In this document: positions 16,346 through 41,814 of the stretch, piece after piece | Position numbering within the stretch: position 1 is the first letter of the stretch | Layout of the letters: each line of letters starts with the position of its first letter | Assembly (NCBI GenBank): GCA_035267645.1 | Contig: DATFLN010000004.1 | Location: 24,534 to 88,533, forward strand | Length of the DNA: 64,000 nucleotides | Reading direction: 5' to 3' | Origin: Gemmatimonadota bacterium | GTDB taxonomy: Bacteria; Gemmatimonadota; Gemmatimonadetes; Palauibacterales; Palauibacteraceae | Program-made: the position numbers and the translations under genes | The notes under the pieces: generated by a model | Databases searched by the model: none | Told to the model about the DNA's origin: nothing | Seen by the model: only the letters and a program-made list of their open reading frames with translations

Positions 16346-19200
16346 CTCCCGGCCCACCGGGCCCACGCCTCCGGGGTGAGGGAGAGGAGGTTGGCGAACA
16401 GGCGGTATGCGCCGGGCACCCCGGCCGGCAGCTCGCGGAAGAAGTCCAGCCCCGTGTACACGTAGATTCCCTCCCCGAGGGGCGCGACCAGGAGGCTCCC
16501 GAGCTTCGCACCCTCCCCCGGGTCGTGCATGGAGAGGAGCGGCACGAAGCGGTCGTCCCAGCTGTGGAGGAAATAGAGCCCGCGCTCCTGGATCCATCCC
16601 TCGAAGTCCCGGCCCCCGATCCGGTTCGGGCTCGCCAGCGGCGGCGCGTCGGGATGGAGGAGCTTCACCGGCGCCCGCTCGTCGGTCACCCGGTCGTGCG
16701 GGTGCGCCATGGTGGCCGGGTACGGGGGATAGCCCCCGTCCACGTACTCGTACTTGTTGTACTGGACGATCAGCGTGCCGCCCGCGCGCACCCAGTCCAG
16801 GAGCCGCTGGTTGGCGGCCTGCAGGTCCTTCCGGACCTCGTAGGCCCGGACGCCGAGCACGATGACGTCGAAGTCGTCGAAGCTCCCCGACCGCAGCCGG
16901 TCGGGCCCGATCATCGTGACGGGGAGGCCCAGCTGGCGGATGGCGTCGGGCACGTCGTCGCCCGAGCCCATCACGTAGCCGACCCGCCGCGTGCGGTCCA
17001 CCCGGACCGGGAAGCGCTCCACCCGGACCGAGGCGTCCGTGTACAGCGGCATCGGGTCGATGTGGGGATAGTCGATCATGGTGAGCTGGCGGGACCAGGT
17101 CCGCGTCCCGGAGCCCGCGCCGGTCGCGCGGGTCCCGGCGGAGCCGTCCGCCGCCCCGGAGCCCGTGGCTCCCGCCGCGCGGGCCACGCCCCTCAGGTGG
17201 TAGGTGCGGAACGCCGGGCCCGCCCCGCTCTCCCCGCTCCCGGCCGCGCCGTTCCGGAGCCGGAACTCGCGGCTCTCGGTCCCTCCCCGCTCGGCCAGCT
17301 CGACCCGGGCGTCGGGCGGCCGGGTGGCCCAGCCGTCCGGGACCTCCAGGTCGGCCACCGCGTGGACGGTGTCCGGAACCTGGCTCTTGAGGGTGACGGT
17401 CACGTCACGCTCCGCGGTGTCCCCCGAGGGCCACACGAGCACGCCGGGCTCGGCGGCCACCGACAAGCGGGGGACCACGTACACCGGCCTCCAGAACTCG
17501 CCCTTGGCCTTGTCGACCCCGCGGTAGCGCACGGGGCTCCCGGCCCGCACGGAGACCCCGGACGCGCCGTCTCCGACGGAGAGCTCCAGCGAGCCCGTGG
17601 CCACGGGCGGGTCCAGCGGCCGCGCGCGCACCGAGGGGTCGTCGGGCCACCGGTACAGGTCTCCCACCGTGTCCCGGCGGAGGAAGTACTCGACCGTGGG
17701 ATGCGCGTCTCCGGGCACCTCGAGCTCGAAGCTCCAGCGGGCCAGCCGGCCCGGGGGCACGGTCGTGGCGCCGGCCCCACCCTTCACCGGCGCTCCGGCC
17801 CGGTAGAACCCGGAGCGCTCCGAGGGGGTGAGCTCCACGCTGTCGGCCGGCAGGAGCCGGGCCGACCAGCCCTCCGGAAGATCGAGGCCCGGCCGTCCGG
17901 CCCGCACGGTGGACGCCCCGCCGTTCCAGACCTCCGCGTCGACGCGGACGGTCTCCCCCGGCACCCACAGGTCGTCGTGGGCCCGGAAGCGCCAGGTGAC
18001 GCCCGCCGCCGACAGGAGGGCCCGGTCGGCCAGGTCGCGCTGGCGCTCCAGCGCCGCCCTCGCGGAGGGCGCCGCGCCTCCGGTCCGCGCCAGCTCGGCC
18101 AGGTCGTCGATGGCGCGTACGGCGGCCCGGAGGGGTCCGCCCGCAGCTCCCGGATCGAGGACGCGGAGCGAGTCCCGGGCCTCGGCCACCGCCGCGACGT
18201 AGGCCGCGGCGCGCGAGCCGGCGCGCGCCCGGACGCCCTCGGGAAGCCCGTCGGCCAGACCCGCCAGGGTCGTGTCGATCCCCGCGAACAGGCCCGCGCC
18301 CGCGGGAGCGCCGGTGAGGTCCCGCAGGAGCATGAGCTGCGTGTAGCGCGGCCCCGGGGGACGCACGACCCCGAAGTCCTGCGAGCGGTGCTGGCTCCGG
18401 CTCAGCATGGCGAGCTGGAAGGGCGACATGCCGAGAACGGGATCGTACTCGCCCGTCTGCACCCGCAGGGTCGTGCTCTCGGGGGTGCGCCACGTGCGGC
18501 GGTAGAGCTTCTCCGCCCGCCACGGCCGGGCGCCCCAGGCCAGCTGCTCGGGGAAGCGCGAGCTGTCGGCCGCCGCGTCGAACGCCTCGCGGGCCAGGAT
18601 GCCGGCCACCTGGTGCTGGCCGTGTCCGTCGGCCGGCGTCCCGCTGAAGATCGAGACGATGACCTGGGGGCGGAACGTGCGGATGACCCACACCATGTCG
18701 CCCAGCAGCGTGTCTCGCGGCCAGTGGGAGAAGGACTCCTCGGCCGTCTTGGAGTAGCCGAAGTCGTAGGCGCGCGAGAAGTACTGCTCCGCCCCGTCGA
18801 TCCGGCGCGCCGCCAGGAGCTCTCCGGTCCGGATGAGGCCGAGCCCCTTCCCCAGCTCGGACCCGATCAGGTCCTGCCCACCCTCCCCGCGCGTGAGGGA
18901 GAGGTAGGCCGCCCGGGCGCCCAGGTGGCGGGCGAGCTCGGCCAGGAGCGCGCTGTCCTCGTCGTCCGGGTGGGCGCCGATCACGAGGACTCGCTTGATG
19001 GCGCCCAGCTGCCGGAGGAGGAGACCGGTCTCGACGGCCCCGCCCTCGACCGGGAGGCCCCGGTAGGGGGCCTCCTGCGCCGCCGCGGGCTCCGCGGCGA
19101 CCGCGAGGAGGGTCGTGAGGACCAGCGCGGCCAGGGCCGTGAGAGTCGGGAGTCCGGAGCGTGATCGGGAGGGGCCGGGACACATCGTGGTGGTCTGCAT
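16342..19200 (-). CDS. Secreted PIG-L/LmbE-family deacetylase with a large C-terminal extension, 952 aa
   Basis: Signal peptide LTALAALVLTTLLAVAAEPAAAQE. PIG-L motif VLVIGAHPDDEDSALLAELAR...LSLTRGEGGQD. The long C-terminal region ends in VGYVMGSGDDVPDAIRQLG...DVIVLGVRAY...GGTLIVQY. Confidence 0.8.
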   Translation of the reverse strand: MQTTTMCPGPSRSRSGLPTLTALAALVLTTLLAVAAEPAAAQEAPYRGLPVEGGAVETGLLLRQLGAIKRVLVIGAHPDDEDSALLAELARHLGARAAYLSLTRGEGGQDLIGSELGKGLGLIRTGELLAARRIDGAEQYFSRAYDFGYSKTAEESFSHWPRDTLLGDMVWVIRTFRPQVIVSIFSGTPADGHGQHQVAGILAREAFDAAADSSRFPEQLAWGARPWRAEKLYRRTWRTPESTTLRVQTGEYDPVLGMSPFQLAMLSRSQHRSQDFGVVRPPGPRYTQLMLLRDLTGAPAGAGLFAGIDTTLAGLADGLPEGVRARAGSRAAAYVAAVAEARDSLRVLDPGAAGGPLRAAVRAIDDLAELARTGGAAPSARAALERQRDLADRALLSAAGVTWRFRAHDDLWVPGETVRVDAEVWNGGASTVRAGRPGLDLPEGWSARLLPADSVELTPSERSGFYRAGAPVKGGAGATTVPPGRLARWSFELEVPGDAHPTVEYFLRRDTVGDLYRWPDDPSVRARPLDPPVATGSLELSVGDGASGVSVRAGSPVRYRGVDKAKGEFWRPVYVVPRLSVAAEPGVLVWPSGDTAERDVTVTLKSQVPDTVHAVADLEVPDGWATRPPDARVELAERGGTESREFRLRNGAAGSGESGAGPAFRTYHLRGVARAAGATGSGAADGSAGTRATGAGSGTRTWSRQLTMIDYPHIDPMPLYTDASVRVERFPVRVDRTRRVGYVMGSGDDVPDAIRQLGLPVTMIGPDRLRSGSFDDFDVIVLGVRAYEVRKDLQAANQRLLDWVRAGGTLIVQYNKYEYVDGGYPPYPATMAHPHDRVTDERAPVKLLHPDAPPLASPNRIGGRDFEGWIQERGLYFLHSWDDRFVPLLSMHDPGEGAKLGSLLVAPLGEGIYVYTGLDFFRELPAGVPGAYRLFANLLSLTPEAWARWAGS

Positions 19201-19322
19201 GGCCGCGAAGCTAGGCCCGACGTCCCGGCGGGGAAAGGGTCCCCGCCCGCGCGGCAGGGGGAACGGGGGCGGCGCCGCTCACGTTGGCAGTCGGGCCCGC
19301 TAGGCCCTAGCCTGCACACGGC

Positions 19323-20783
19323 GTGAGCGTGGGGCGGCCGCCACCCGAGGAAGACGATTCACATGACGCCACGGTCGGACTCAGCGAGCCGGGAGCCTTG
19401 GGAAGCGTGACCGCGTGGGCCCTGCTCCTCCTGTACGGGCTGGTCTTCTTCGTCCTCTCGCCGTCGGCCTCCGACGCCGGAGGCTTCTACGAGGGACGCT
19501 CTCGCTCGGGCAGCTCGCCGGGGACCCCGCTCCTGTTCGCCACCGTCTTCGTGTCGTGGATCTTCGCCAAGTCCGTGACGAACGCGGCCAACCTCACGGG
19601 GACCTACGGCCTGCCCGGCGGCGTGGCGTACGGCGCCTGGTGGCTCTCGATCCCGGTGGCGGGCGTGGTGATCGTCGCGCTCCGCCGGAGGTTCGGGGCC
19701 CGCTCGCTGCCGGGCTGGGTGCGCTCCCGGTACGGCCGCGCGGCGGCGCTGGCCTTCCTCGTGGCCGTCCTCATCCGGCTCTACAACGAGGTGTGGAGCA
19801 ACACGGCGGTGGTGGCGGCCTACTTCGGGCCGCGCGGATCGGGCGCCTTCCTGCTCGCGGCCGGCGCGTTCACGGCGCTGACGCTCCTCTACACGCTCAA
19901 GGGCGGCCTGCGCAGCTCGATCTTCACGGACGCCGTGCAGGCGGGCCTGTTCGGGGCCTTCGTGGTGCTCGTCGTCCTCCTGGCCTTCCCTCGCACGGGC
20001 GCCGGCCTGCGCCGGGTGGCCACGTCCGGCCACTGGACGCTGGCCGGCGGCGTGGACCTCCTCCTGGTCGGCCTCCTCCAGTCCTTCAGCTATCCGTTCC
20101 ACGACCCGGTCCTCACCGACCGGGGCTTCCTGTCCGGGCCCCGGGAGACGCTGCGGGCCTTCGGGCTGGCGGGGGCCCTCGGCTTCGCGGCCATCGTGCT
20201 CTTCGGCCTGGTCGGGATCCCCGCCTACCTCGGCGGCACGCCCTTCCACGACGATGCGCCCCGGGCGGTGGCCTCGGCGCTGGGCGCCGGAGCGCTCCTC
20301 ATGGTGAACGTCGTCATGCTCACCTCGGCCGGCTCCACCCTGGACTCGACGTTCTCCTCGATCGCGAAGGCCATCGACCGGGACGGGCCCGAGATCCTGC
20401 GCGGGCCGCGGCCGGCCGGCTCGCTGTCGGGCGGGCGCGCCGCCATGGTCGCGATCGCGGTGCTCGGGAACCTCCCCCTCCTGTTCGGGGCGAGGATCCT
20501 CCAGGCCACCACCGTGAGCGGCACGATGGTGATCGGCCTCGCCCCCATCTTCCTCCTCGGCCTCGTGCTCCGGGCGCCCCCCCTCTCCTTCCACCTGGCG
20601 TTCTGGGCCGGCGTGGCGATCGGGATCGCGCAGGCGGCCGGTCTCGTTCCGGCCGCCCTCCGCATCGGGAGCGGCCGCTACGCCGACCTCCTGGGCGCCA
20701 ACCTGTGGGGCCTGGTCCTGGTCACCGCCCTCTTCCTCCTGCCCGTCCTGGCTCACCCGAGACCTGCGAGGAGACCCCGATGA
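19323..20783 (+). CDS. Multi-pass permease, sodium:solute symporter (SSS)-like
   Basis: 486 aa and highly hydrophobic with about 12-13 predicted helices. SSS-like GGLRSSIFTDAVQ motif. Start uncertain: GTG 19323 or in-frame GTG 19407. The stop overlaps the next start (ATGA 20780-20783). Confidence 0.65.
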   Translation: MSVGRPPPEEDDSHDATVGLSEPGALGSVTAWALLLLYGLVFFVLSPSASDAGGFYEGRSRSGSSPGTPLLFATVFVSWIFAKSVTNAANLTGTYGLPGGVAYGAWWLSIPVAGVVIVALRRRFGARSLPGWVRSRYGRAAALAFLVAVLIRLYNEVWSNTAVVAAYFGPRGSGAFLLAAGAFTALTLLYTLKGGLRSSIFTDAVQAGLFGAFVVLVVLLAFPRTGAGLRRVATSGHWTLAGGVDLLLVGLLQSFSYPFHDPVLTDRGFLSGPRETLRAFGLAGALGFAAIVLFGLVGIPAYLGGTPFHDDAPRAVASALGAGALLMVNVVMLTSAGSTLDSTFSSIAKAIDRDGPEILRGPRPAGSLSGGRAAMVAIAVLGNLPLLFGARILQATTVSGTMVIGLAPIFLLGLVLRAPPLSFHLAFWAGVAIGIAQAAGLVPAALRIGSGRYADLLGANLWGLVLVTALFLLPVLAHPRPARRPR

Positions 20784-22192
20784 CCGATGCCGCGAATCGA
20801 GACGCCGAGACCGTCGACGCCCTGGTCATCGGCACGGGCCAGGCCGGGACCCCCCTGGCCGGAGCCCTGGCCGCCGACGGGCGCCGGACCGCGATCGTGG
20901 AGCGGGGGCGCGTCGGCGGGACCTGCGTGCTGCGCGGCTGCACGCCCACCAAGACCATGGTCGCGAGCGCACGGGTGGCCTACCTGGCCCGGCGTGCGTC
21001 CGACTACGGCGTCCGGACCGGGCCCGTGTCGGTGGACCTGGAGGCGGTGCGGGCGCGGAAGCGGGACATCGTCGACGCCTGGAGCGAGAGCGAGCGGAAG
21101 CATCTGGAGGAGACGGAGGGCCTGGAGCTGGTGTTCGGGGAAGCCCGCTTCGTGGCGGAACGGACCGTCGAGGTCGCGCTGCGGGAGGGCGGGACCCGGC
21201 GGCTCTCGGCGCCGTGGGTGTTCCTCGACACCGGCTCGCGACCGGCCGTCCCCCCGCTCGACGGGCTGGAGGACGTCCCCTACCTGGACTCCACCTCGAT
21301 CATGGAGCTCGGGGAGGTCCCCGACCACCTCGTGGTCCTGGGCGGGGGCCCGCTCGGGCTCGAGTTCGCCCAAATGTTCCGGCGCTTCGGGGCCGAGGTG
21401 ACCATCGTGGAGCGGGGGAGCCGCCTGGCCGCAGGGGAGGACGAGGACGTCTCGGACGCCCTGCGGGAGATCCTGGAGGAGGACGGCCTCCGGGTGCTCA
21501 CGGACGCGGATGCGAGCGCGGTCCGGGGCGGCGACGGCTCCGGGCCCATCCGGCTCTCCGTGCGCGGCCCGGACGGACCCGTGGAGCTCGCCGGGAGCCA
21601 CCTCCTGGTCGCCGCCGGTCGCGCGCCCAACACGGACCGGCTGGACCTCGCGGCCACCGGCCTGGCCACCGACGAGCGTGGCCACGTCCAGGTGAACGGG
21701 CGCCTCGAGACCACGGTGGAGGGGATCTGGGCCCTGGGCGACATCACCGGACATCCGGCGTTCACCCACACCTCGTACGACGACTACCGGATCGTGAAGG
21801 CCAACCTCCTGGACGGTGGTGACCGCTCCACGGAGGACCGTATCCTCACCTACACCGTGTTCACCGATCCCCAGCTCGGACGTGTCGGGTCCACCGAGCG
21901 GGACGCGCGGAACGAGTTTCGCGAAGTCCGCGTTGCGAAGCTCCCGATGAGCCGGGTGGCCCGCGCGATCGAGACGGACGAGACCCGCGGCTTCATGAAG
22001 GCCGTCGTGGACGGCGGCAGCGGCCGGATCCTCGGCGCGGCGGTGCTCGGGATCGACGGAGGCGAGGTGGCGGCGATGCTGAAGCTGGCGATGATGGGCG
22101 GCCTGCGGGCGGCGGACCTGCATCACGCGGTCCTGGCCCACCCCACGCTGGCCGAATCGCTCAACAACCTGTTCGAGGAGGCCCTGACGTGA
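20780..22192 (+). CDS. Class-I pyridine nucleotide-disulfide oxidoreductase, RclA-like (not MerA)
   Basis: Frame of ORF 19415..22192, starting at ATG 20780 (MTDAANRDAETVDALVIGTGQAG). Redox CxxxxC in GGTCVLRGCTPTK. FTHTSYDDYRIVKANLLDGGDRSTEDRILTYTVFTDPQLGRVG resembles E. coli RclA FTYISLDDYRIVRDELLGEGKRSTDDRKNVPYSVFMTPPLSRVG from memory. C-terminal HPTLAE; no NmerA domain and no C-terminal Cys pair. Confidence 0.8.
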   Translation: MTDAANRDAETVDALVIGTGQAGTPLAGALAADGRRTAIVERGRVGGTCVLRGCTPTKTMVASARVAYLARRASDYGVRTGPVSVDLEAVRARKRDIVDAWSESERKHLEETEGLELVFGEARFVAERTVEVALREGGTRRLSAPWVFLDTGSRPAVPPLDGLEDVPYLDSTSIMELGEVPDHLVVLGGGPLGLEFAQMFRRFGAEVTIVERGSRLAAGEDEDVSDALREILEEDGLRVLTDADASAVRGGDGSGPIRLSVRGPDGPVELAGSHLLVAAGRAPNTDRLDLAATGLATDERGHVQVNGRLETTVEGIWALGDITGHPAFTHTSYDDYRIVKANLLDGGDRSTEDRILTYTVFTDPQLGRVGSTERDARNEFREVRVAKLPMSRVARAIETDETRGFMKAVVDGGSGRILGAAVLGIDGGEVAAMLKLAMMGGLRAADLHHAVLAHPTLAESLNNLFEEALT

Positions 22193-23136
22193 GCGAGCCG
22201 GACGGAAGGACGACGCGGTGGAGCGGAGCGCGGATCGGCCGGTGGCCGTTCCTGGCCGCGGCTCTCGTGGTGGGAGCGGTGACGGCCGCGGCCTGCTCGG
22301 GAGGCGGAGGCGGGAGCGGCGGCGGAGCCTTCACGATCGGGGCCATCCCGGACCAGGACCCCGAGAAGCTCCAGCGGCTGTTCGGGAAGGTGGCCGACTA
22401 CCTGCACGGGAAGCTGGACGTGCCCGTCCAGTACAAGCCGGTCACCGACTACGCGGCCGCCGTGACGGCCTTCCGGGTCGGCGACCTGGACATGGTGTGG
22501 TTCGGCGGGCTGACGGGCGTGCAGGCCCGCCTGCAGGTCCCCGGGGCGCACGCCCTGGCGCAGCGCGGGATCGACGAGGGCTTCCACAGCGTCTTCCTGG
22601 CCAACACCTCGACCGACCTCCAGCCCATCGACAGCCTCCCGGGGCTCGCGGAGCTGAAGGGACACACCTTCACGTTCGGGAGCCAGATCTCGACCTCCGG
22701 TCGCCTCATGCCCCAGTACTTCCTGGGCGAGGCCGGCGTGGGCGTGGATGACTTCGAGGGGGAGCCCGGCTTCTCGGGCTCGCACGACAAGACCATCAAG
22801 CTCGTCGAGTCGGGGACCTACGACGCGGGCGTCGCGAACGAGCAGGTGTGGCGGAGCCGGGTGGACTCCGGGCGGGTCGACACGACCCGGGTGCGCGTGA
22901 TCTGGCGGACCCCGCCCTACCACGACTACCACTGGGTCATCCGGCCCGGCCTGGACGACAGGTTCGGGAAGGGCTTCACGGACCGCGTGCGGCAGGCCCT
23001 GCTGGGGCTGAGCCCCGACGACCCGGCCCAGAAGGAGATCCTGGACCTGTTCGGGGCGCGGCGCTTCGTGCCCACGGCCGACTCGAGCTACGACCAGATC
23101 GAGGCCGTCGGAAGGGACATCGGCAAGATCCAGTGA
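22189..23136 (+). CDS. PhnD-family ABC substrate-binding lipoprotein (phosphonate/phosphite-type fold; substrate unknown)
   Basis: 315 aa. Lipobox AAACSGGGGGSGGG. PhnD-like motifs FTIGAIPDQDPEKL, DMVWFGGLTGV, FTFGSQISTSGRLMP and YHDYHWVIRP. The GTG start overlaps the upstream stop (GTGA 22189-22192). Confidence 0.85.
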   Translation: MSEPDGRTTRWSGARIGRWPFLAAALVVGAVTAAACSGGGGGSGGGAFTIGAIPDQDPEKLQRLFGKVADYLHGKLDVPVQYKPVTDYAAAVTAFRVGDLDMVWFGGLTGVQARLQVPGAHALAQRGIDEGFHSVFLANTSTDLQPIDSLPGLAELKGHTFTFGSQISTSGRLMPQYFLGEAGVGVDDFEGEPGFSGSHDKTIKLVESGTYDAGVANEQVWRSRVDSGRVDTTRVRVIWRTPPYHDYHWVIRPGLDDRFGKGFTDRVRQALLGLSPDDPAQKEILDLFGARRFVPTADSSYDQIEAVGRDIGKIQ

Positions 23137-23882
23137 CGCCGCCCGTCTTCGAGCTCCGGGACGTCCGCCGCAGCTTCGGCTCGACCGAGGCCGTGTCCGG
23201 CCTGGACCTCGTGGTCCGTCCGGGCGAGAGGGTGGCGCTGGCGGGACCGAGCGGCGCCGGCAAGACCACCCTCATCGGCCTCCTGAACGGCACGCTCCTC
23301 CCCAGCACGGGCTCCGTCCGCATCTTCGGCCGGGACACCCGGCAGGTGGGGGCACGCGAGCTCCGCCGCCTCCAGCGGAGGATCGGGACGGTCTACCAGC
23401 AGTTCCACCTGGTCGACGAGCTCCGGGTGATCCACAACGTGAACGCGGGGAGGCTGGGCCGCTGGTCCCTGGCCCGCGCGGCGCTGTCGCTCGTCTCGCC
23501 CCGCGAGGCCGAGGACACCCGGCGCCTCCTGGGACGGGTGGGGATGGCGGGGAAGCTGTACGAGCGCACGGGGGACCTGTCGGGGGGCGAACAGCAGCGG
23601 GTCGCGCTGAGCCGGGTCCTGGCCCAGGATCCCGACGTCATCCTCGCGGACGAGCCGATCGCGAGCCTGGACCGGGAGAACAGCCGGGAGGTCATGGACC
23701 TCCTGCGGGACCTGGTCGAGGAGAGGGGACGCACGGCCGTCATCAGCCTCCACGACGTCTCCTTCGCGCTGAGCCACTGCGAGCGGGTGGTGGGCGTCCG
23801 CTCGGGTCGGGTCCTGTTCGACGAGCCCGCCGCCTCGGTCACCTCCGAGATGACGGACGAGCTCTACCGCATCGAACGGTGA
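23133..23882 (+). CDS. PhnC-like ABC ATP-binding protein
   Basis: Frame of ORF 22848..23882. GTG 23133 overlaps the PhnD-like stop. Walker A GPSGAGKTT, signature LSGGEQQRVALSRVL, Walker B VILADEP, H-loop ISLHD. Confidence 0.9.
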   Translation: MTPPVFELRDVRRSFGSTEAVSGLDLVVRPGERVALAGPSGAGKTTLIGLLNGTLLPSTGSVRIFGRDTRQVGARELRRLQRRIGTVYQQFHLVDELRVIHNVNAGRLGRWSLARAALSLVSPREAEDTRRLLGRVGMAGKLYERTGDLSGGEQQRVALSRVLAQDPDVILADEPIASLDRENSREVMDLLRDLVEERGRTAVISLHDVSFALSHCERVVGVRSGRVLFDEPAASVTSEMTDELYRIER

Positions 23883-25636
23883 GCGGAGCCGGGGAGGCGG
23901 CGGCAGCGCCCGGGGAGGCGGCCCCGCCGCGCCCGCTCCGCCCGAGCGCCCACACCTTCTGGGGCGTGGCCGCCCTCGTGGCGGTGGGCGTCGCCGCGGC
24001 GGTGGCCGTCGCGCCGGGCGGCCGCCTGGTGAACGTCCGGGGATGGTCGGAGCTCGCCCGCTTCTTCGCCGCCGCCCTCCACCCGGAGCTGGGGCGGGGC
24101 TTCGTCCCCCTCACGCTCCACGCCTCGCTGGTCACGCTCGCCTTCGCGGTGTGCGGCACCATCGTGAGCCTCGTCCTCGGCCTCACGGGCGGGATCCTGG
24201 CGTCGGAGACCTTCTGGAGGATGGCGGTCTCGGGCCGGACGGACGCGGGAGGGATCCGGAGCCGGGGGCCCTGGGTCGTCGTCCGGGCCTGCCTCGCGGT
24301 CCCGAGGGGCATCCACGAGATCGTGTGGGGGCTCCTGTTCGTGAACCTGGTGGGCCTGGATCCGGTGGTGGGGGTGGCCGCGATCGCCATCCCCTACGGC
24401 GCGATGACCGCCAAGGTCTACTCCGAGATCCTGGACGAGGCGGACCACCGGGCCATGCGGGCCCTCCGCTCAGCGGGGGCCGGGCGCGCCGCCGCCTTCC
24501 TGTACGGGCTGTTCCCGAGGGCCGCGCGGGACCTGGCCTCCTACGCCTTCTACCGGTTCGAGTGCTCGATCCGCTCGGCGGCCGTGCTCGGGATCATCGG
24601 GGCCGGGGGGCTCGGCTACCAGATCTTCCTGAGCCTCCAGTCCCTCCGCTACGAGCAGATGTGGACCTTCCTGTACGCGCTCATCGTCGTGGCGGGGCTC
24701 AGTGACCTGTGGAGCGGGCTGTTCCGGAGCCACCTGGGGGCCGCGACCCGGATCGACCTGGGCCTGGACGACCGGGACGCCCGGCCCGGGGCGCCGCGGA
24801 GGCCTCCCGCCCGGGCCGACCGCGTGGTCCGCGCCTCGTTCGTCCTGTTCGCGCTCCTGGCGGTCCTCTCCTTCTGGCACCTCGGGCCCCACTTCGGGCG
24901 CCTGTTCAGCGCCGGGACGGGCCATCAGCTCGCGGGCCTGGCCGGGAGGGCGTGGCCGCCGGCCCTGGGGGGCGTGAGCCTCGGGCACATGTTCGTCCTG
25001 GCCGGGAAGACGCTGGCCCTATCCGTCCTGGCCATCGCGGTGGCCGGCGCGGGCGGGGTGCTCCTGGCCTTCCCGGCGGCGTACAATTTCCTCCTCCCCG
25101 GCGGCATCCTCCTCGGCGAGAACGGGGGCGGCCCGGTGCGGCGCGCGCTCGGCGCGGCAGGCTTCGGGATCGCGCGGCTCCTCCTCCTGGTCCTCCGGGC
25201 CATCCCCGCCCCGATCTCCGCGCTCCTCCTCCTCTACGTGCTCTTCCCGGGGATCGTGCCCGGCGCGCTCGCACTCGGGCTCTACACCCTGGGCGTCCTC
25301 GGGCGGCTCATGGCGGAGGTGGTCGAGGGGCTGGAAAGGAGGCCGCTGCGGGCCCTCCGGGCCCAGGGCGCGTCGGGGCTCCAGGTCTTCCTGTACGGGG
25401 TCCTCCCCGCCACGCTCCGGCGCTTCGTCTCCTATACTTTCTACCGGTGGGAGGTCGCCATCGCCGGGACGGTCATGGTGGGCCTGGTGGGGGCCGGCGG
25501 GCTGGGCGTCCTCCTCACCGAGCAGCTCAGCAGCTTTGCCTACGACGCGGCGCTCACCACCCTGCTCTTCTACGTCGGGCTCCTGTTCGTGGGCGACATG
25601 GTGAGCGCCACCGCCCGCCGACAGCTCAGGGAATAG
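23879..25636 (+). CDS. Fused double PhnE-like ABC permease
   Basis: 585 aa. The GTG start overlaps the PhnC-like stop (GTGA 23879-23882). Two repeated permease halves each carry a PhnE-type loop (YGAMTAKVYSEILDEADHRAMRALRSAGAGRAAAF and LGRLMAEVVEGLERRPLRALRAQGASGLQVF). Confidence 0.85.
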   Translation: MSGAGEAAAAPGEAAPPRPLRPSAHTFWGVAALVAVGVAAAVAVAPGGRLVNVRGWSELARFFAAALHPELGRGFVPLTLHASLVTLAFAVCGTIVSLVLGLTGGILASETFWRMAVSGRTDAGGIRSRGPWVVVRACLAVPRGIHEIVWGLLFVNLVGLDPVVGVAAIAIPYGAMTAKVYSEILDEADHRAMRALRSAGAGRAAAFLYGLFPRAARDLASYAFYRFECSIRSAAVLGIIGAGGLGYQIFLSLQSLRYEQMWTFLYALIVVAGLSDLWSGLFRSHLGAATRIDLGLDDRDARPGAPRRPPARADRVVRASFVLFALLAVLSFWHLGPHFGRLFSAGTGHQLAGLAGRAWPPALGGVSLGHMFVLAGKTLALSVLAIAVAGAGGVLLAFPAAYNFLLPGGILLGENGGGPVRRALGAAGFGIARLLLLVLRAIPAPISALLLLYVLFPGIVPGALALGLYTLGVLGRLMAEVVEGLERRPLRALRAQGASGLQVFLYGVLPATLRRFVSYTFYRWEVAIAGTVMVGLVGAGGLGVLLTEQLSSFAYDAALTTLLFYVGLLFVGDMVSATARRQLRE

Positions 25637-25645
25637 GAGGGCTCC

Positions 25646-26965
25646 ATGGCGCAGATGAAGCAGACGCTGGTCGACGCGCCCCGCCTGGTCGAGTGGGTGC
25701 GCGACGCGCGCGAGCGGACCCGAACGCTGGTCTCCGACCTCGACGACGAGCAGCTCCTCGGGCCCCGCCTCTCCATCGTGAACCCGCTCCTGTGGGAGAT
25801 CGGGCACCTGGCCTGGTTCCAGGAGAAGTTCGCCCTCAGGGGGGCGCTGGGCCGGGACCCGATCCGCGCGGACGCGGACGAGCTGTGGGACTCGATGGCC
25901 GTGGCGCACGACACGCGCTGGGACCTCCCCCTCCCCTCCCGGGAGGAGACGCTGGCCTACATGCGGGCCGTCGAGGACGCCGTGGTCGAGGCGCTCGAGG
26001 CCTCGCCCGACGAGGACCTCCTCTACCACGCCCTGTACACGGTCTACCACGAGGACATGCACGCCGAGGCGTTCACCTGCACCCGGCAGACGTGCGGATG
26101 GCCGGCCCCGCCCCTCGGCGCCTCAGGCGGGGAGGAGGTCGCCGGCGGCCCGCCGCCGGAGGGCGACGCGGAGGTGCCGGGGACGGCGGCGTTCGCGCTC
26201 GGCGCCCCCCGGGACGCGCCCTTCGCCTTCGACAACGAGCAATGGGCGCACCCGGTCCCGCTCGAGCCCTTCCGCATCGCGAGGCGGCCGGTCACGCAGG
26301 GCGAGTTCGCCGCGTTCGTGGACGACGGCGGCTACGAGCGGGACGAGCTGTGGAGCGAGGCGGGGCTGGCGTGGCGCGAGGAGACGGGGGCCGACGCGCC
26401 GCCGTACTGGAGCCGGGAGGGGGGCGGCTGGACCCGCCGGACGTTCGACCGGCGGGTGCCGCTCGAGCCGGAGCTCCCGATGGTCCACGCGAGCTGGTTC
26501 GAGGCCGAGGCCTGGTGCCGGTGGGCCGGCCGCAGGCTCCCCACCGAGGCCGAGTGGGAGGCGGCCGCGGGCTCTCCGGCGGCGGACGGGGAGCTGGACG
26601 GGCGGGCCGAGGCCAAGCTCCGCCATCCGTGGGGCGAGGAGCAGGACGCGGCCGGGCGGGCCAACCTGGACGGCCTGGCCGGGGGGTGCGTCCCGGCGGG
26701 CCGGCTGCCGGCGGGACGGAGCCCGCACGGGTGCGTGGACATGCTCGGGCAGGTGTGGGAGTGGACCTCCAGCGACTTCGGCCCCTATCCCGACTTCTCG
26801 CCCGACCCGTACGAGGCCTACTCGGAGCCCTGGTTCGGGGGCCGGAAGGTGCTGCGCGGAGGGAGCTGGGCCACGCGCTCCCGGCTCGTGTGGAGCACCT
26901 ACCGGAACTACTTCACGCCCGACCGGCGGGACGTGTTCGCGGGCTTCAGGACGTGCGCGATCTAG
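25646..26965 (+). CDS. EgtB/SenA-family non-haem-iron enzyme (DinB_2 + FGE-sulfatase domains); candidate selenoneine/ergothioneine-type C-chalcogen bond synthase
   Basis: 439 aa with AGGAGG Shine-Dalgarno 8 nt upstream. N-terminal EIGHLAWFQEKF and YHEDMHAEAF (His triad). C-terminal FRIARRPVTQGEFAAFV, GQVWEWTSSDF and VLRGGSWATRS. Confidence 0.8.
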   Translation: MAQMKQTLVDAPRLVEWVRDARERTRTLVSDLDDEQLLGPRLSIVNPLLWEIGHLAWFQEKFALRGALGRDPIRADADELWDSMAVAHDTRWDLPLPSREETLAYMRAVEDAVVEALEASPDEDLLYHALYTVYHEDMHAEAFTCTRQTCGWPAPPLGASGGEEVAGGPPPEGDAEVPGTAAFALGAPRDAPFAFDNEQWAHPVPLEPFRIARRPVTQGEFAAFVDDGGYERDELWSEAGLAWREETGADAPPYWSREGGGWTRRTFDRRVPLEPELPMVHASWFEAEAWCRWAGRRLPTEAEWEAAAGSPAADGELDGRAEAKLRHPWGEEQDAAGRANLDGLAGGCVPAGRLPAGRSPHGCVDMLGQVWEWTSSDFGPYPDFSPDPYEAYSEPWFGGRKVLRGGSWATRSRLVWSTYRNYFTPDRRDVFAGFRTCAI

Positions 26966-27017
26966 GCCGGGCGGGGCGGGACTGGGGCCGGCGCGCGCCC
27001 CGGGACGTGGGAGCGGC

Positions 27018-28097
27018 GTGAGGATCCTCCTGGTCACCCCATCGGCCGACGCCGAGGCGCCCGGGAACCGGGTCACGGCCGACCGCTGGGCCGGCTTCCT
27101 CCGGGAGCTGGGCCACGAGGCGGAGGTCGCCGGGGCGTATCCGGGCGCGGAGGGCGGCGCGCGCCCCGACGTCCTGGTCGCCCTCCACGCCCGGAAGAGC
27201 CTCCCGTCGGTGGTGCGCTACGACGAGGAGCGGGGGTCCGGACGGGCCCCCCGGGGCGGACTCGTGGTGGCCCTCACCGGCACCGACCTGTACCGTGACC
27301 TGGCGGACTCGGACGCCGCGGCCTGGGACGCGGTCCGCCGCGCCGACCGGCTGGTGGTCCTGCAGGAGCGCGGGCCGGACGAGATGCCCCCCGAGCTCCG
27401 CGAGAGGACGCGGGTCATCTACCAGTCCGTCCCGGAGCTGTGGGACGGTGGCGCGGCGGCCGGGGACGTCCCGGGCGCGGGGGGCGAGGACGGGGAGGCC
27501 GCGGACGGGCCTGCGGCGCCCGACGCCGACGCGGCGGGGAGCGCCGGGGAGGAGGCGCTGCACGTCTGCATGCTGGCCCACCTGCGGCCGGTGAAGGACC
27601 CCCTCCTCGCGGCCGAGGCGGCCGCGCTCCTCCCGGAGGGGAGCCGCGTCCGGATCGACCACTACGGCTCGGCCTACTCGGAGGAGGTGGCCCGGCGGGC
27701 CCGGGAGGCCTCGCCCCCGGGCTCCCGGTACAGGTGGCACGGGGAGATCGGCCGCCCCGAGGCCCTCCGCCGCCTGGCCGCGAGCGACCTCCTCCTCCTC
27801 ACCTCGAAGCTCGAGGGAGCCGGGAACGCCGCCTCCGAGGCGATCACGGCCGGGGTCCCCGTGCTGTGCACGGACGTCTCGGGGCTGGTCGGCATGGTCG
27901 GCCGGGGGTACCCCGGCCTGTTCGGGGTCGGCGACGCACGAGCGCTGGCCCGGCTCCTGCGGCGAGCGGAGACCGACCCCGGGTTCGTGCGACGCCTCCG
28001 GCGACACGTCGAGCAGCGCAGGCCGCTCCTCGACCCCGCCCGGGAGCGCGACGCCTGGCGCGACCTCCTCCAGCGACTCGATCTCTCCGAGGTCTGA
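27018..28097 (+). CDS. GT-B/GT4 glycosyltransferase, SenB-like (candidate selenosugar synthase)
   Basis: 359 aa, GTG start. N-terminus MRILLVTPSADAEAPGNRVTADRWAGFLRELGHE. E-x7-E motif in SKLEGAGNAASEAITAGVPV. Assignment to the SenB family rests on my memory of that family's N-terminal signature plus adjacency to the EgtB-like gene. Confidence 0.65.
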   Translation: MRILLVTPSADAEAPGNRVTADRWAGFLRELGHEAEVAGAYPGAEGGARPDVLVALHARKSLPSVVRYDEERGSGRAPRGGLVVALTGTDLYRDLADSDAAAWDAVRRADRLVVLQERGPDEMPPELRERTRVIYQSVPELWDGGAAAGDVPGAGGEDGEAADGPAAPDADAAGSAGEEALHVCMLAHLRPVKDPLLAAEAAALLPEGSRVRIDHYGSAYSEEVARRAREASPPGSRYRWHGEIGRPEALRRLAASDLLLLTSKLEGAGNAASEAITAGVPVLCTDVSGLVGMVGRGYPGLFGVGDARALARLLRRAETDPGFVRRLRRHVEQRRPLLDPARERDAWRDLLQRLDLSEV

Positions 28098-28101
28098 CGA
28101 T

Positions 28102-29475
28102 ATGGACGCCCTCACGGTCGACCGGCTGCAGTTCGCCTTCACCGTCTCCTTCCACTACCTGTTCCCGCAGCTCACCATGGGGCTCGCCCTCCTCATCCTC
28201 CTCCTCGAGACGCAGGCCCTGCGGACGGGCGAGGAGCGCTGGGAGCGCGCCGCGCGGTTCTGGGCCAAGATCTTCGGGATCAACTTCGCCGTGGGCGTGG
28301 TCACCGGGATCCCCATGGAGTTCCAGTTCGGCACGAACTGGGCGGTGTTCTCCAGGGCCGCGGGCGGCGTCATCGGCCAGACGCTGGCCATGGAGGGCGT
28401 GTTCGCGTTCTTCCTCGAGTCGTCCTTCCTGGGGCTCTTCCTGTTCGGGCGGGAGAAGCTGGGGAAGAAGGGGCACTGGTTCACCGCGCTGGCCATGTTC
28501 CTGGGCTCGTGGCTCTCCGGCTACTTCATCGTGGCCACGGACGCCTGGATGCAGCACCCGGTGGGGCACGCCGTGGGACCGGGCGGCGAGATCGCCCTGC
28601 AGAGCTTCCGGGCGCTCCTGACCAACCCGTGGGCCATCTGGCAGTACCTGCACACGATGGTGGGGGCGGTCATCACCGGCTGCTTCGCCCTGGCGGCCGT
28701 GGGCGCCTGGTACGTCCTCGACGACCGCGAGGTGGCGTACGGCAAGATGTTCGTGCGCGTGGGCGTCCTGGTCGGCGTCGTGGCCTCGGTGGTCCAGCTC
28801 TTCCCGCTCGGGGACATCCAGGGGCGCATGGTGGCCGACCACCAGCCCCCCACCCTCGCCGCCATGGAGGGGCTGTTCCGGACCGAGCAGGGCGCGCCGC
28901 TGGCCATCGTGGGGCAGCCCGACGTGGCCCGCGGCGAGCTGGACAACCAGCTCGTCGTCCCGCGGGCGCTCAGCTTCCTCACCTACCGGCGCTGGGAGGC
29001 CGAGGTGAAGGGCCTGGACGCCTTCCCCGAGCAGGACTGGCCCGACAACATCCCGCTCCTCTACTACAGCTACCACATCATGGTCGGGCTCGGGACGATC
29101 TTCATCGCGATCCTGGCCTGGTCCGCCTTCAGGTTGTGGAGGGGGACCCTGTTCGAATCGCGCGCCACGCTGTGGCTCCTGATGCTGGCCCTTCCCTTCC
29201 CCTACATCGCCAACACGGCGGGCTGGCTCACCGCCGAGCTCGGCCGGCAGCCCTGGGTGATCTGGGGGCTGATGCGGACGTCCCAGGGCGCCTCGCCCAC
29301 CGTCTCCTCCGGGAACGGGACGTTCACGCTGGTGGGCTTCATGGGGCTCTACTTCGTCCTCGGCGTCCTCTTCCTCTTCCTCGTGGGGCGGGAGATCGCC
29401 CACGGGCCGGGAGGCGGAGACGCGACTCCGAGCGGATCCGGCGAGCCCGCCGCCGAACGGGTCCGGGGGGGCTGA
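28102..29475 (+). CDS. cydA: Cytochrome bd ubiquinol oxidase subunit I
   Basis: 457 aa. Motifs LQFAFTVSFHYLFPQLTMG, GIPMEFQFGTNW, EGVFAFFLESSF and a Q-loop region. Starts 4 nt after the GT stop. Confidence 0.95.
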   Translation: MDALTVDRLQFAFTVSFHYLFPQLTMGLALLILLLETQALRTGEERWERAARFWAKIFGINFAVGVVTGIPMEFQFGTNWAVFSRAAGGVIGQTLAMEGVFAFFLESSFLGLFLFGREKLGKKGHWFTALAMFLGSWLSGYFIVATDAWMQHPVGHAVGPGGEIALQSFRALLTNPWAIWQYLHTMVGAVITGCFALAAVGAWYVLDDREVAYGKMFVRVGVLVGVVASVVQLFPLGDIQGRMVADHQPPTLAAMEGLFRTEQGAPLAIVGQPDVARGELDNQLVVPRALSFLTYRRWEAEVKGLDAFPEQDWPDNIPLLYYSYHIMVGLGTIFIAILAWSAFRLWRGTLFESRATLWLLMLALPFPYIANTAGWLTAELGRQPWVIWGLMRTSQGASPTVSSGNGTFTLVGFMGLYFVLGVLFLFLVGREIAHGPGGGDATPSGSGEPAAERVRGG

Positions 29476-29476
29476 C

Positions 29477-30514
29477 ATGGAGACGATCTGGTTCTGGTTC
29501 GTGGCGTTCCTCCTCACCATGTACGTCCTCCTGGACGGCTTCGACCTGGGCGCCGGCGCCCTCCACCTCGTGGTGGCCCGCACCGACGAGGAGCGGCGGA
29601 CCGTCCTGCGCTCGATCGGGCCGGTGTGGGACGGGAACGAGGTGTGGCTGATCGCCGGCGGCGGGACGCTGTACTTCGCCTTCCCGGCCCTGTACGCCTC
29701 GAGCTTCAGCGGCTTCTACCTGCCGCTCATGCTCGTGCTGTGGCTCCTGGTCCTGCGCGGGATCTCGATCGAGTTCCGCAGCCACCTGGAGAACCGGGTG
29801 TGGGCGCCTTTCTGGGACGTGGTGTTCGCGGGCGCGAGCCTGCTCCTGGCCCTGTTCCTGGGCGCGGCGCTGGGGAACGTCGTGCGCGGGGTCCCGCTCG
29901 GGGAGGCGGGCTGGTTCTTCGTCCCCCTGTGGACGGACTTCCTGGTCGGTCCCGATCCGGGGGTGCTGGACTTCTACACCCTCTCGGTGGGTCTCACCGC
30001 CCTGGCCGCCCTGGCCCTGCACGGCGCGCTGTGGCTCTCCCACAAGACCGAGGGCGACGTGCAGGCCCGCGCCCGCCGCGCGGCGGGCCGCCTGTGGTGG
30101 GCCGTGGTAGGGGGCACCCTCCTCATTACGGCGCTGACCTGGTGGGTCCAGCCGCTCGTGCCGCGGCACCTGGGGGAGCGGCCGTGGGCGTGGGTCTTCC
30201 CCGCCCTGGCGCTGGCCGGCCTGGCCGCGATCCGCCGGGCGCTCGCGGCGCGGAAGGACCTGCCGGGCTTCCTGGGCTCGTGCGCCTTCCTGGCCGGCAT
30301 GCTCGCGAGCGCGGCCGTCAGCCTGTATCCGTACGTGCTGCCCTCGGTGGGACCCGGTCCGGGCCTGACCGTGCACACCGCCGCGGCCGCGCGCAGCGGC
30401 CTGGCGATCGGCCTGGCCTGGTGGATCCCCGGCATGGCGCTGGCCCTGGCCTACGTGGTCTTCCTGTACCGGAGGTTCCGCGGCAAGGTGTCGCTGGAGG
30501 GCGAGGGGTACTAG
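29477..30514 (+). CDS. cydB: Cytochrome bd ubiquinol oxidase subunit II
   Basis: 345 aa. Motif WFWFVAFLLTMYVLLDGFDLGAGAL...GPVWDGNEVWLI. Starts 1 nt after the cydA stop. Confidence 0.95.
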   Translation: METIWFWFVAFLLTMYVLLDGFDLGAGALHLVVARTDEERRTVLRSIGPVWDGNEVWLIAGGGTLYFAFPALYASSFSGFYLPLMLVLWLLVLRGISIEFRSHLENRVWAPFWDVVFAGASLLLALFLGAALGNVVRGVPLGEAGWFFVPLWTDFLVGPDPGVLDFYTLSVGLTALAALALHGALWLSHKTEGDVQARARRAAGRLWWAVVGGTLLITALTWWVQPLVPRHLGERPWAWVFPALALAGLAAIRRALAARKDLPGFLGSCAFLAGMLASAAVSLYPYVLPSVGPGPGLTVHTAAAARSGLAIGLAWWIPGMALALAYVVFLYRRFRGKVSLEGEGY

Positions 30515-30604
30515 GAGAGGCCGCCGGCGGGTCGTCGCGCGGCCCGCGTGCGAGCGATCCGGCGTTCGGCCCGCGCGAGACGACCAGGCGGAGGCGAGCT
30601 CTCG

Positions 30605-31804
30605 ATGGACGACGCACCCGAGCACGGCACGACGAGCGCGGGCTCCGAGGACGGCCCCGGCCCGGCCTCCGGCGCCGCCGTCCACCTGGGCGGACGGGAA
30701 GTCGTCGTGCTGCTCCTGGGCCTGGCGGCGAGCGTCCTCCTCGGCGTCTTCCTGTGGCCCTTCCTCGGGGCCATCATCACGAGCGGCACGCTGGCCATCC
30801 TGGTCTATCCGGCCTACCGGCGGCTCCGGGGCCGGATCTCGAACGAGAACGCCGCGGCGTTCCTCGGCTCGGCGCTCCTCTTCTTCCTCATCCTCCTCCC
30901 CCTGATCGGCCTCTCCTTCGCGCTCGCGGACCAGCTCCACCTGGGCGCCGACCGGGTGGCCCGGGACCTGGCCGGCAAGCTCGGACCCGGCGGCGACCTG
31001 CGGCAGTGGGCCGTCTCCGTGGGCCAGTCCCTGGGCCTCACGCCGGCCCAGATCACCGAGCTGATCGACCGCCAGCTCCGGGAGGTCCCGACCCTCCTGG
31101 CCCAGCACGCCGTAGGGTTCCTCTCCGGGCTCGGGGGCTCGCTCTTCCAGGGCGGGATCGCCCTGTTCACGCTGTTCTTCATGCTGCGGGACGGGCCCGC
31201 CCTGGTGGACGTCCTCCGCTGGCTCCTCCCGCTCCGGCCCGAGTACACCGACCACCTCATCGACCGCGCCCGGGAGGTCACCTACGCCACCATGTTCGGC
31301 AACGTGGTGGTGGCCATCGTGCAGGGCATCCTGGTCGGCGCGGCCTTCTGGGTGCTCGGCCTGCCGGTCCCGACGCTGTGGGGCACGCTGGCCGGGCTCC
31401 TCGCGCTCCTGCCGGTGGTCGGCGCGCCCCTGGTGTGGGCGCCCGCCGGGATCCTCCTCCTCGTCCACGGGAGCGTGGTCCGGGGTGTCATCCTCCTCGC
31501 GTTCGGCACGCTGGTGGTGAGCACGGTGGACAACCTCCTGCGGGCCGTGCTCGTGAGCGACCGGGCGCAGCTCCACCCCCTCATCGTCTTCTTCAGCGTC
31601 CTCGGCGCGATCCTCGTGTTCGGAGGCGTGGGGCTCTTCATCGGCCCCGTCCTCTTCGTCCTGGCCCTGGCCCTGATCGAGGCCGCGCGGCTGGTCCTCG
31701 AGCCCCAGCACGCCGCCGGCGGGACGATCCCCCGCGGCGAGCTCCTGCTGGACCGGCTCTCGCTGGGGGCCGCGGTGCGGAAAGGAGAGGCCCGGGGGGG
31801 CTGA
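30605..31804 (+). CDS. AI-2E (PerM/YhhT) family transporter
   Basis: Frame of ORF 30548..31804. I prefer ATG 30605 (MDDAPEHG). Multiple TM helices; the C-terminal GLLALLPVVGAPLVWAPAGILL...VLGAILVFGGVGLFIGPVLFV is typical of the family. Confidence 0.8.
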   Translation: MDDAPEHGTTSAGSEDGPGPASGAAVHLGGREVVVLLLGLAASVLLGVFLWPFLGAIITSGTLAILVYPAYRRLRGRISNENAAAFLGSALLFFLILLPLIGLSFALADQLHLGADRVARDLAGKLGPGGDLRQWAVSVGQSLGLTPAQITELIDRQLREVPTLLAQHAVGFLSGLGGSLFQGGIALFTLFFMLRDGPALVDVLRWLLPLRPEYTDHLIDRAREVTYATMFGNVVVAIVQGILVGAAFWVLGLPVPTLWGTLAGLLALLPVVGAPLVWAPAGILLLVHGSVVRGVILLAFGTLVVSTVDNLLRAVLVSDRAQLHPLIVFFSVLGAILVFGGVGLFIGPVLFVLALALIEAARLVLEPQHAAGGTIPRGELLLDRLSLGAAVRKGEARGG

Positions 31805-39289: not shown

Positions 39290-40459
39290 GTGCACGTCAT
39301 AGATCGAGAGGGGCTCGACGCCCTGATCCGCCATCTGTCCGCGGAGGGCCGTACGGTGCTCGGCCCGACCGTGGCCGGCGGGGCCATCGCTCTCGGCGAG
39401 GTCGGGTCCGCGCGCGACCTCCCCGAGGGCTGGACCGACGAGCAGGAGGGCGGAGCCTACCGGCTGCGGCGGCGGGAGGACCGCGCCCTGTTCGGCTACG
39501 CGGTCGGGCCCCGCTCGTGGAAGGCGTGGCTCCACCCCGCCGAGCTGCGGCTGTGGCGCGCCCGACGGACGGACCGGGGGTTCGAGCTGGGGCCCGACGA
39601 CGCTCCCGTCCCCCGCTACGCCTTCCTGGGCGTCCGCCCGTGCGAGCTCCACGCGATCCGGATCCAGGAGCGCGTGCTGGCCGGGGGCGTCCACGCCGAC
39701 CCCGGCTACCGCGCCCGGCGCGAGGCGGCGTTCCTCGTGGCCGTGAACTGCGGGGAGCCCGGCGGGACGTGCTTCTGCGCCTCCATGGGAACCGGGCCGG
39801 CCGCCGACGACGGCTACGACCTCGTCCTCACCGAGATCCTGGATCCTCGAGACCCCGGGGGTCCGACCCGTTTCACCGTGCTGGCCGGGTCCGCCCGCGG
39901 CGAGGAGGCGCTCGGAGGCGTCCCGGCCCGGGAGGCCTCCCCCGGCGAGGCGCGGGCCGCGCGGTCCGTGGTCGAGGAGGCCGCGAGCCGCATGGGCCGC
40001 TCGCTCGACGCCGCGGGGCTCCCCGAGCTCCTGGCCGACCGCCTCGAGCACCCGCGCTGGGAGGAGACGGCGGAGCGCTGCCTGGCGTGCGGGAACTGCA
40101 CGCTGGTGTGTCCCACCTGCTTCTGCACCAGCGTCGACGACACCACCGAGCTCACCGGGGACGCGGCCGAGCGCTGGCGCCGCTGGGACTCGTGCTTCGC
40201 CACCGACTTCTCCCACATCCACGGCGGGAGCGTCCGGGGCTCGCGTGCCTCGCGCTACCGCCAGTGGCTGACCCACAAGCTGGGCACCTGGCACGAGCAG
40301 TTCGGCACCTCCGGGTGCGTGGGCTGCGGCCGGTGCATCACCTGGTGTCCCGTCGGCATCGACCTCACCGAGGAGGTCGCGGCTCTGCGGAGGTCTCCGG
40401 GCCCCGCCGCCGGCCCCGACGGGGCCGCCCGCCCCCCCACCTCCGGAGGTGATCCATGA
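39290..40459 (+). CDS. 4Fe-4S dicluster subunit, AsrA/HyhB-like (group 3b [NiFe]-hydrogenase beta-type subunit)
   Basis: 389 aa, GTG start. [35 protein letters not shown]. The stop overlaps the next start (ATGA 40456-40459). Confidence 0.8.
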
Positions 40460-41813: not shown

Positions 41814-41814
41814 G

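Follow-up and report, generated by a model that had tools for sequence, protein, structure and literature searches.

Can a locus that encodes a synthase of the selenium antioxidant selenoneine and a selenosugar synthase, and neither a selenophosphate synthetase nor a hercynine-forming methyltransferase, be a working selenoneine operon? The question is raised by a 64 kb stretch of DNA (the window; about 73% G+C) from the metagenome-assembled genome (MAG; it carries protein HKK26571.1) of an uncultured member of the Gemmatimonadota, in which a senA-like open reading frame (ORF; 25646-26965, plus strand) is followed by a senB-like one (27018-28097, plus strand). An earlier reading of the letters alone (the sequence-only reading) had proposed both identities, had noted the absence of senC (selD) and egtD, and had offered two explanations, namely that these functions are supplied in trans or that the pair makes something different. 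Our analysis makes it likely that the locus is a working selenoneine operon to which selenophosphate and hercynine are supplied in trans, from selD and egtD genes elsewhere in the genome. We favor this because SenA, SenB, and an adjacent substrate-binding protein score above curated cutoffs, the catalytic residues are conserved, a sister locus is syntenic, and selD-less sen loci are prevalent; the operon is also tight, stand-alone selD genes exist in the group, and the genes of the related ovs pathway are chromosomally separated.

Both ORFs are intact and have a strong coding signal, with G+C contents at third codon positions (GC3) of 0.98 and 0.96. Every gene from 19407 to 31804 lies on the plus strand, with spacings of -4 to 53 bp as far as cydB (30514), in the order SSS-family permease, reductase, TIGR04553 substrate-binding protein (SBP), PhnC-like ATPase, PhnE-like permease, senA, senB, cydA, cydB, and AI-2E-family transporter; senA adjoins senB on the same strand with a gap of 53 bp. 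A second, independent assembly (ENA ERZ27257072, contig k141_179474) matches window positions 17018-28288 at 99.98% and also contains the overlap of the reductase stop with the SBP start. The same gene order in both assemblies indicated that it is not a single-assembly artefact.

The first ORF passed the NCBIfam model for SenA (NF041186; 492.2 bits, cutoff 420) and failed those for EgtB (TIGR03440; 330.1 bits, cutoff 360) and OvoA (ovoA_Nterm; 126.5 bits, cutoff 400), and Pfam detected DinB_2 and FGE-sulfatase domains. The EgtB-type motifs quoted in the sequence-only reading are all there, EIGHLAWF with H54, YHEDMH with H135 and H139, GQVWEWT at 368 and RGGSW at 404, and the iron ligands H54/H135/H139 and the catalytic tyrosine Y389 align with those of OvsA, EgtB, and SenA structures. 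EgtB Arg87 and Asp416 are replaced by His88 and Phe423, and replacement of R87 by His and of D416 by Phe or Tyr is the reported SenA signature (Kayrouz et al. 2022, bioRxiv 10.1101/2022.04.13.486033). The hercynine-binding trio Y392/N421/Y422 is like SenA Y366/N395/F396 and unlike OvsA M401/Q430/A431. From H88, Y392, N421, Y422, and F423 we infer that the enzyme would select hercynine and a selenosugar as substrates. The EgtB/SenA-like identity is thus borne out by the SenA model and the residue checks.

Among solved structures, the best match to window SenA was OvsA (316-325 bits), followed by M. thermoresistibile EgtB (254 bits) and V. paradoxus SenA (VpSenA; 235 bits, in two stretches). The low VpSenA score is explained by a segment of roughly 60 residues that is missing from VpSenA and kept in window SenA, OvsA, and EgtB; the engineered variant OvsA-YNF, which behaves as SenA, outscored wild-type OvsA. 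In a neighbor-joining tree, selD-linked and unlinked loci are interspersed and OvsA and EgtB fall outside the SenA clade. The OvsA assignment prompted by the best PDB match was therefore ruled out by the active-site residues and the tree.

The second ORF scored 320.3 bits against the SenB model TIGR04348 (cutoff 300; next NCBIfam family 108 bits), carries a Glycos_transf_1 domain in Pfam, and matches the SenB structures in the PDB at 153 bits. Both the SenB-like N-terminus and the E-x7-E motif (E266...E274) noticed earlier in this GT4 gene are present, and its identity as senB is borne out by the SenB model and the residue checks. Conserved positions include N17, T20, H57, T87, T89, D90, Q136, R190, V192, K193, E266, and E274. 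All residues found to be important by mutagenesis of V. paradoxus SenB (VpSenB N20, T23, T83, T85, K158, E231, and E239; PMC10891094) are kept, as N17, T20, T87, T89, K193, E266, and E274, and are invariant or nearly so in a 17-sequence alignment (A1); the catalytic lysine K158 corresponds to K193. VpSenB His235, a contact to sugar C4', is Asn270 here, and the 'EGGAHV' sugar-donor motif of beta-proteobacterial SenB-like enzymes reads EGAGNA, with the glutamate kept. This position is Asn in 17/17 aligned clade members, indicating that the motif as published applies only to a subclade. The sequence GGGAG lies 5 nt ahead of the GTG start of senB. One SenB homologue (P0002) is 78% identical; a metagenome scan gave nothing closer than 48%. 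Window SenB also has a linker insert of roughly 40 residues, rich in Gly, Ala, Asp, and Glu (about residues 140-180; window 27430-27560), between its two Rossmann-like halves, which is not in VpSenB and is shorter or absent in most A1 relatives.

The absence of senC (selD) and egtD from the 64 kb was confirmed. Pfam detected no AIRS/AIRS_C or EgtD-type domain in the about 52 genes called by GC3 in the window, and tblastn of its six frames with one EgtD and four SelD queries (E up to 10), a search that is also able to detect a selD interrupted by a selenocysteine (Sec) TGA codon, gave a best E of 0.17. A scan of the window found no in-frame TGA flanked by coding signal, and no selD was found in the DNA beyond the window (the adjoining 10 kb to the left, which has no egtD either, and 2.4 kb to the right, taken from other assemblies). 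Measured against the three-gene definition of a sen biosynthetic gene cluster (an egtB-like gene, a TIGR04348 gene, and selD within +-5 kb), the locus has the adjacent senA and senB and lacks the selD.

A survey of 80 SenB loci from species-representative (GTDB) genomes, classified by tblastn and mostly from Acidobacteriota, Planctomycetota, Gemmatimonadota, Latescibacterota, and Poribacteria, put this absence in perspective. senA lies immediately 5' of senB in 64/80 loci, selD is within reach in 18/80, egtD is nearby in 16/80, and a TIGR04553-type transporter occurs in 12/80. Full +-10 kb flanks were available for 28 loci, 23 of which have senA, and selD is absent from 17 of these 23 senA-senB loci; the transporter is kept in four selD-less loci (L012, L021, L054, and L066). 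Published counts agree, with the three-gene cassette at 827 of 2,353 TIGR04348 genes and egtD co-localized in only a small share of the sen clusters (Kayrouz et al. 2022, bioRxiv 10.1101/2022.04.13.486033), and the ovs pathway genes co-occur yet are chromosomally separated (Kayrouz et al. 2024, PMC11030361). In public genomes, senAB is most often arranged without selD, so that the layout is not an anomaly, and the missing senC and egtD, which the sequence-only reading had treated as notable, are not unusual. The locus is an ordinary selenoneine locus, and its 'missing' genes reflect the normal modular organization of sen genes.

Selenium is nevertheless marked in cis. The SBP encoded upstream of senAB scored 361.8 bits (cutoff 250) against TIGR04553, 'putative selenate ABC transporter substrate-binding protein', and its cognate ATPase and permease genes overlap or abut its own. 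The ATPase is best matched by ABC_phnC (233.6 bits, below its cutoff) and its gene has a 4-bp overlap with the SBP gene; the permease matches TIGR01097 PhnE in three stretches (310.7 bits), and 10 bp separate the end of its gene from senA. Many sen clusters have a putative selenate transporter next to them (Kayrouz et al. 2022, bioRxiv 10.1101/2022.04.13.486033). The upstream transporter had earlier been taken as unrelated; as a TIGR04553-type importer, it instead provides a selenium marker next to senAB in the absence of selD.

Of the relatives with usable context, the nearest is a Gemmatimonadota-type locus (L082; GCA_964515425.1, contig CAZEUW010000037.1) with the order reductase, yceI (opposite strand), selD, SBP, ABC ATPase, PhnE, SenA, SenB. 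The six genes shared with the window are in the same order and orientation, and their products are 69% (reductase), 78% (SBP), 80% (ATPase), 77% (PhnE), 77% (SenA), and 65% (SenB) identical. In L082, a Sec-containing selD, the product of which passes TIGR00476, and the antisense yceI lie between the reductase and SBP genes, whereas in the window the GTG start of the SBP gene overlaps the reductase stop by 4 bp. The selD slot is thus closed by gene overlap, which indicates that this lineage either lost selD from it or moved the gene elsewhere. Window SenA is sister to L082 SenA in the tree, within a group whose other members (L091, L052, and L041) are all selD-linked. Window and L082 SenA agree at all nine positions of an active-site motif, and selD-linked and unlinked loci do not differ in motif class; this disfavors the suggestion that the pair makes something different. 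In L116, where SenA is 69% identical to that of the window, reductase, SenA, and SenB are found with neither selD nor transporter in the 10 kb upstream.

Where selD resides in this group was apparent from the closest homologues found for L082 SelD, which are 76-81% identical and encoded on Gemmatimonadota-like contigs of 73-75% G+C, at a conserved site of housekeeping genes, with rpsT, an M50 protease gene, scpA, scpB, rluB, a PCMT gene, and selD overlapping upp; more distant homologues adjoin upp and an SBP56 gene. The overlapping gene in these relatives, at first an intriguing uracil phosphoribosyltransferase-like partner, turned out to be ordinary upp. An in-frame TGA occupies the catalytic Cys position ('RLTQYSHGAG*ACKLGPEDLE') in L082 SelD and in all SelDs of the group that were looked up. 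This 'GAG*ACK' signature identifies them as Sec-containing SelDs that gene callers truncate to about 300 residues, which in turn implies that these bacteria have full Sec machinery. For most relatives that were looked up, selD is beside upp at this housekeeping site and not in the sen locus. Stand-alone selD therefore exists in this group and is an obvious housekeeping source of selenophosphate. Of the two earlier explanations, the first, supply in trans, is the one favored.

A further gene recurs beside sen genes. It encodes a class-I flavoprotein of the disulfide reductase family, the nearest solved structure of which is 6kgy (291 bits, 39% identity), which we take to be RclA. Its best NCBIfam match was PRK06370.1-4 (539 bits, below the cutoff of 629), and all three copies tested (window, L082, and L116) fall below every curated NCBIfam cutoff. 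The redox pair C49xxxxC54 and the His-Glu dyad H454-P-T-x-x-E are conserved in the window protein, and every sen-locus copy compared keeps CxxxxC and the dyad and lacks the C-terminal (metal-binding) Cys pair. The window-type copies thus share the CxxxxC pair, the HPTxxE dyad, and the FAD/NAD(P)H and dimerization domains with RclA/MerA-like reductases such as 6kgy, and differ from them in falling below the family cutoffs and in being placed repeatedly beside senA or the selenium importer: the gene recurs in several phyla, directly adjoining either senA or importer genes in the window and in L082, L116, L044, L054, L058, and L063, and it lies within 10 kb in L003, L012, L021, L028, and L046. 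A search of the accessible literature turned up no mention of a reductase beside sen genes. Its recurrence suggests that it may be an unrecognized accessory enzyme of selenoneine metabolism; selenite, an air-oxidized selenosugar diselenide, and oxidized selenoneine are candidate substrates, as hypotheses only. In vitro SenA assays include dithiothreitol (Kayrouz et al. 2022, bioRxiv 10.1101/2022.04.13.486033). In another Gemmatimonadota locus (L052:7735-10236, minus strand), an 833-residue fusion of an NADH-dehydrogenase-like flavoprotein with SelD is encoded directly beside senB, so that a reductase is coupled to selenophosphate synthesis in another manner.

A pathway is proposed where the TIGR04553-type ABC system would import selenate or selenite, as the curated family name and the genomic association suggest, and cellular reductants, possibly including the co-transcribed RclA-like reductase, would yield selenide. 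SelD encoded in trans would convert this into selenophosphate. SenB is then predicted, from the conservation of its residues, to join selenophosphate to a UDP-sugar with Lys193 cleaving the Se-P bond, as demonstrated for the V. paradoxus enzyme, and to release a selenosugar. SenA, with its 3-His iron site and Tyr389, would link the selenosugar to C2 of hercynine, and the resulting selenoxide would collapse to selenoneine. Relative to its sister lineage, the window lineage would have lost or relocated a selD formerly located between the reductase and SBP genes.

Several points weigh against this pathway. The organism's own selD or egtD was not found, and the six SelD-bearing contigs that were looked up all come from other samples. 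Independent signs that selenium is used, such as a selenoprotein gene or tRNA-Sec, are absent from the window, and scans of it for tRNAs and Rfam families returned no tRNA of any kind and no Rfam family. That TIGR04553 transporters are specific for selenate is a hypothesis of the model's curators ('hypoth_equivalog'), for which we found no experimental basis, as selenate or selenite transport, in the searchable literature. Given Asn270, the preferred UDP-sugar of SenB may also differ from that of VpSenB.

The strongest competing explanation is that the pathway is decaying, with selenophosphate no longer made after loss of selD, and senA, senB, and the importer persisting as relics. selD is indeed gone from the exact slot that it holds in L082, and the search for a selD of this organism found none. 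All seven genes are intact, however, with GC3 values of 0.94-0.98 and tight translational coupling, and each catalytic residue tested is conserved; across phyla, most loci also have the selD-less layout, a point in favor of selection and against decay. We therefore regard decay as improbable.

It is rather less probable still that the chemistry is independent of SelD or otherwise different, with SenB using a selenium (or sulfur) donor other than selenophosphate, perhaps by way of the reductase. In its favor, selD is absent from about 76 kb, an RclA-like reductase gene is directly beside senA in the selD-less L054, L058, L063, and L116, and VpSenA does accept thioglucose, although very poorly (Kayrouz et al. 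2022, bioRxiv 10.1101/2022.04.13.486033). However, the residues of the selenophosphate pocket of SenB and the Se-P-cleaving lysine are conserved, and the SenA motif does not distinguish selD-linked from unlinked loci. The L082 operon holds both reductase and SelD, so the reductase is no substitute for SelD, and SenC makes no thiophosphate and SenB gives no product in vitro without SenC and ATP (bioRxiv 10.1101/2022.04.13.486033). A narrower form of this idea, in which the lineage has no selenophosphate synthetase at all and SenB is fed by another donor, for example one made by the reductase from the imported oxyanion, has only a slim chance of being correct; if true, it would constitute a SelD-independent route to selenoneine. 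Finally, despite the PDB ranking, an ovoselenol-type (OvsA) or sulfur-type (EgtB) synthase in place of SenA is the reading to which we give the least credence, in view of the trio and signature residues, the EgtB model score, the tree, and the segment that depresses the VpSenA score.

The selenoneine operon proposed here can also be compared with other known systems. With V. paradoxus senABC (bioRxiv 10.1101/2022.04.13.486033) it shares senA followed by senB, passage of the equivalog models, and the key SenA and SenB residues, and with sen clusters in general a putative selenate transporter nearby (many clusters) and the absence of egtD from the cluster (most clusters). It differs in lacking senC (selD) for at least 25 kb to each side, in the roughly 60-residue segment of SenA, in EGAGNA for EGGAHV and the 40-residue acidic insert of SenB, and in the additional co-directional reductase, SSS permease, and cydAB genes. 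The ovs pathway (ovsA/ovsM with senB/senC; PMC11030361) likewise combines a SenB-made selenosugar with a SenA-related iron enzyme, but the histidine-binding M/Q/A residues of OvsA are not in window SenA; general Pfam scans of the called genes, which included no OvsM-specific search, reported no methyltransferase domain (OvsM). With type I EgtB of the egtABCDE system, window SenA shares the fold, the 3-His iron site, the catalytic Tyr, and the Asn/aromatic pair that binds hercynine; the thiol-binding Arg87/Asp416 of EgtB are His/Phe here, and no egtA, egtC, egtD, or egtE is nearby.

Table 1. Features of the sen operon, with related reductase and selD genes at other loci. Positions refer to the window unless a locus is named.
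Feature	Position	Strand	Evidence
Divergent SSS-family permease, opening the co-directional run	19407..20783	+	weak SSF match, 26 bits
Class-I FAD/NAD(P)H disulfide-reductase-family protein, RclA/MerA-like	20780..22192	+	Pyr_redox_2 + Pyr_redox_dim
Substrate-binding lipoprotein (SBP), PhnD-like, of a putative selenate/selenium-oxyanion ABC importer	22189..23136	+	TIGR04553, Pfam Phosphonate-bd
ABC ATPase, PhnC-like, of the same TIGR04553-type importer	23133..23882	+	ABC_tran
Fused double PhnE-like permease of the same TIGR04553-type importer	23879..25636	+	TIGR01097, BPD_transp_1 x2
senA, selenoneine synthase, non-haem-iron selenoxide synthase, 439 aa	25646..26965	+	NF041186, DinB_2 + FGE-sulfatase, residues
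senB, selenosugar synthase, GT-B glycosyltransferase, 359 aa	27018..28097	+	TIGR04348, PDB SenB matches, residues
cydA + cydB, cytochrome bd oxidase	28102..30514	+	Cyt_bd_oxida_I 497 bits, Cyt_bd_oxida_II 289 bits
Reductase copy	L082:2017-3411
Reductase copy	L116:8528-9913
Reductase copy	L058:5612-6982
Reductase copy	L063:7108-8465
Reductase copy	L044:5479-6840
Reductase copy	L054:7152-8522
Sec-type SelD	L082:4150-5180
Sec-type SelD	L086:9900-10924
Sec-type SelDs	L087, L088, L089, L090, L112 (same relative position)

At the upstream end of the co-directional run, the SSS permease gene overlaps the reductase gene by 4 bp. The permease had been put forward as a hercynine importer; this proposal found no support, as the SSF match is weak, no solved relative is found by sequence, and neither L082 nor any of the 80 GTDB-representative sen loci has a homologue of at least 100 bits. 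Its membership in the sen system is doubtful. Divergent from the operon, window 16342-19200 (minus strand) encodes a 952-residue exported protein with an N-terminal PIG-L/LmbE (N-acetylglucosamine-conjugate deacetylase) domain. This deacetylase was considered as an N-acetylglucosamine-processing partner and rejected, as it has a signal peptide and is not near any other fetched sen locus. At the downstream end, only 4 bp lie between the senB stop and the start of cydA, after which come cydB and the AI-2E-family transporter gene (window 28102-31804, plus strand). Neither L082 nor the 80 GTDB-representative loci showed a CydA homologue close to senB; cydAB are probably co-transcribed with senB and lie outside the conserved sen module.

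Immediately left of the window, L083:10878-17455 contains nosZ (nos_propeller and cupredoxin domains), nosD, nosF, nosY, and a cytochrome c gene, and the nosZ cluster indicates that the organism is probably a nitrous-oxide reducer. The left 10 kb flank further holds Usp, ArsR, and RND efflux genes, and the right 2.4 kb flank glyoxalase and cupin genes. Within the window, a [NiFe]-hydrogenase cluster (39290-44712, plus strand) encodes a Fer4_22 protein, a cyclic nucleotide-binding protein, an NAD-binding/iron-sulfur subunit, and small and large subunits. The final ORF of the cluster (43963-44712) has matches to the HycI maturation protease and also to a LigD_N 3'-phosphoesterase fragment, an odd combination that may be an artefact of ORF calling. 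An isolated 116-residue fragment (7576-7926, minus strand) that matches positions 227-301 of the COX1 (haem-copper oxidase subunit I) profile, between two tandem-CBS-domain genes, is probably a gene remnant.

The locus adds to the range of the selenoneine pathway an uncultured, high-G+C lineage of Gemmatimonadota in which nosZ and cytochrome bd genes are present as well. The recurrent reductase is the only element of it that could yield new biochemistry. For the family as a whole, the three-gene definition under-describes sen loci: the usual unit in the sampled phyla is senA-senB, and selD, egtD, the TIGR04553 importer, and the RclA-like reductase are optional, mobile add-ons. Genome mining should accordingly call sen loci by senA and senB, and not by adjacency to selD.

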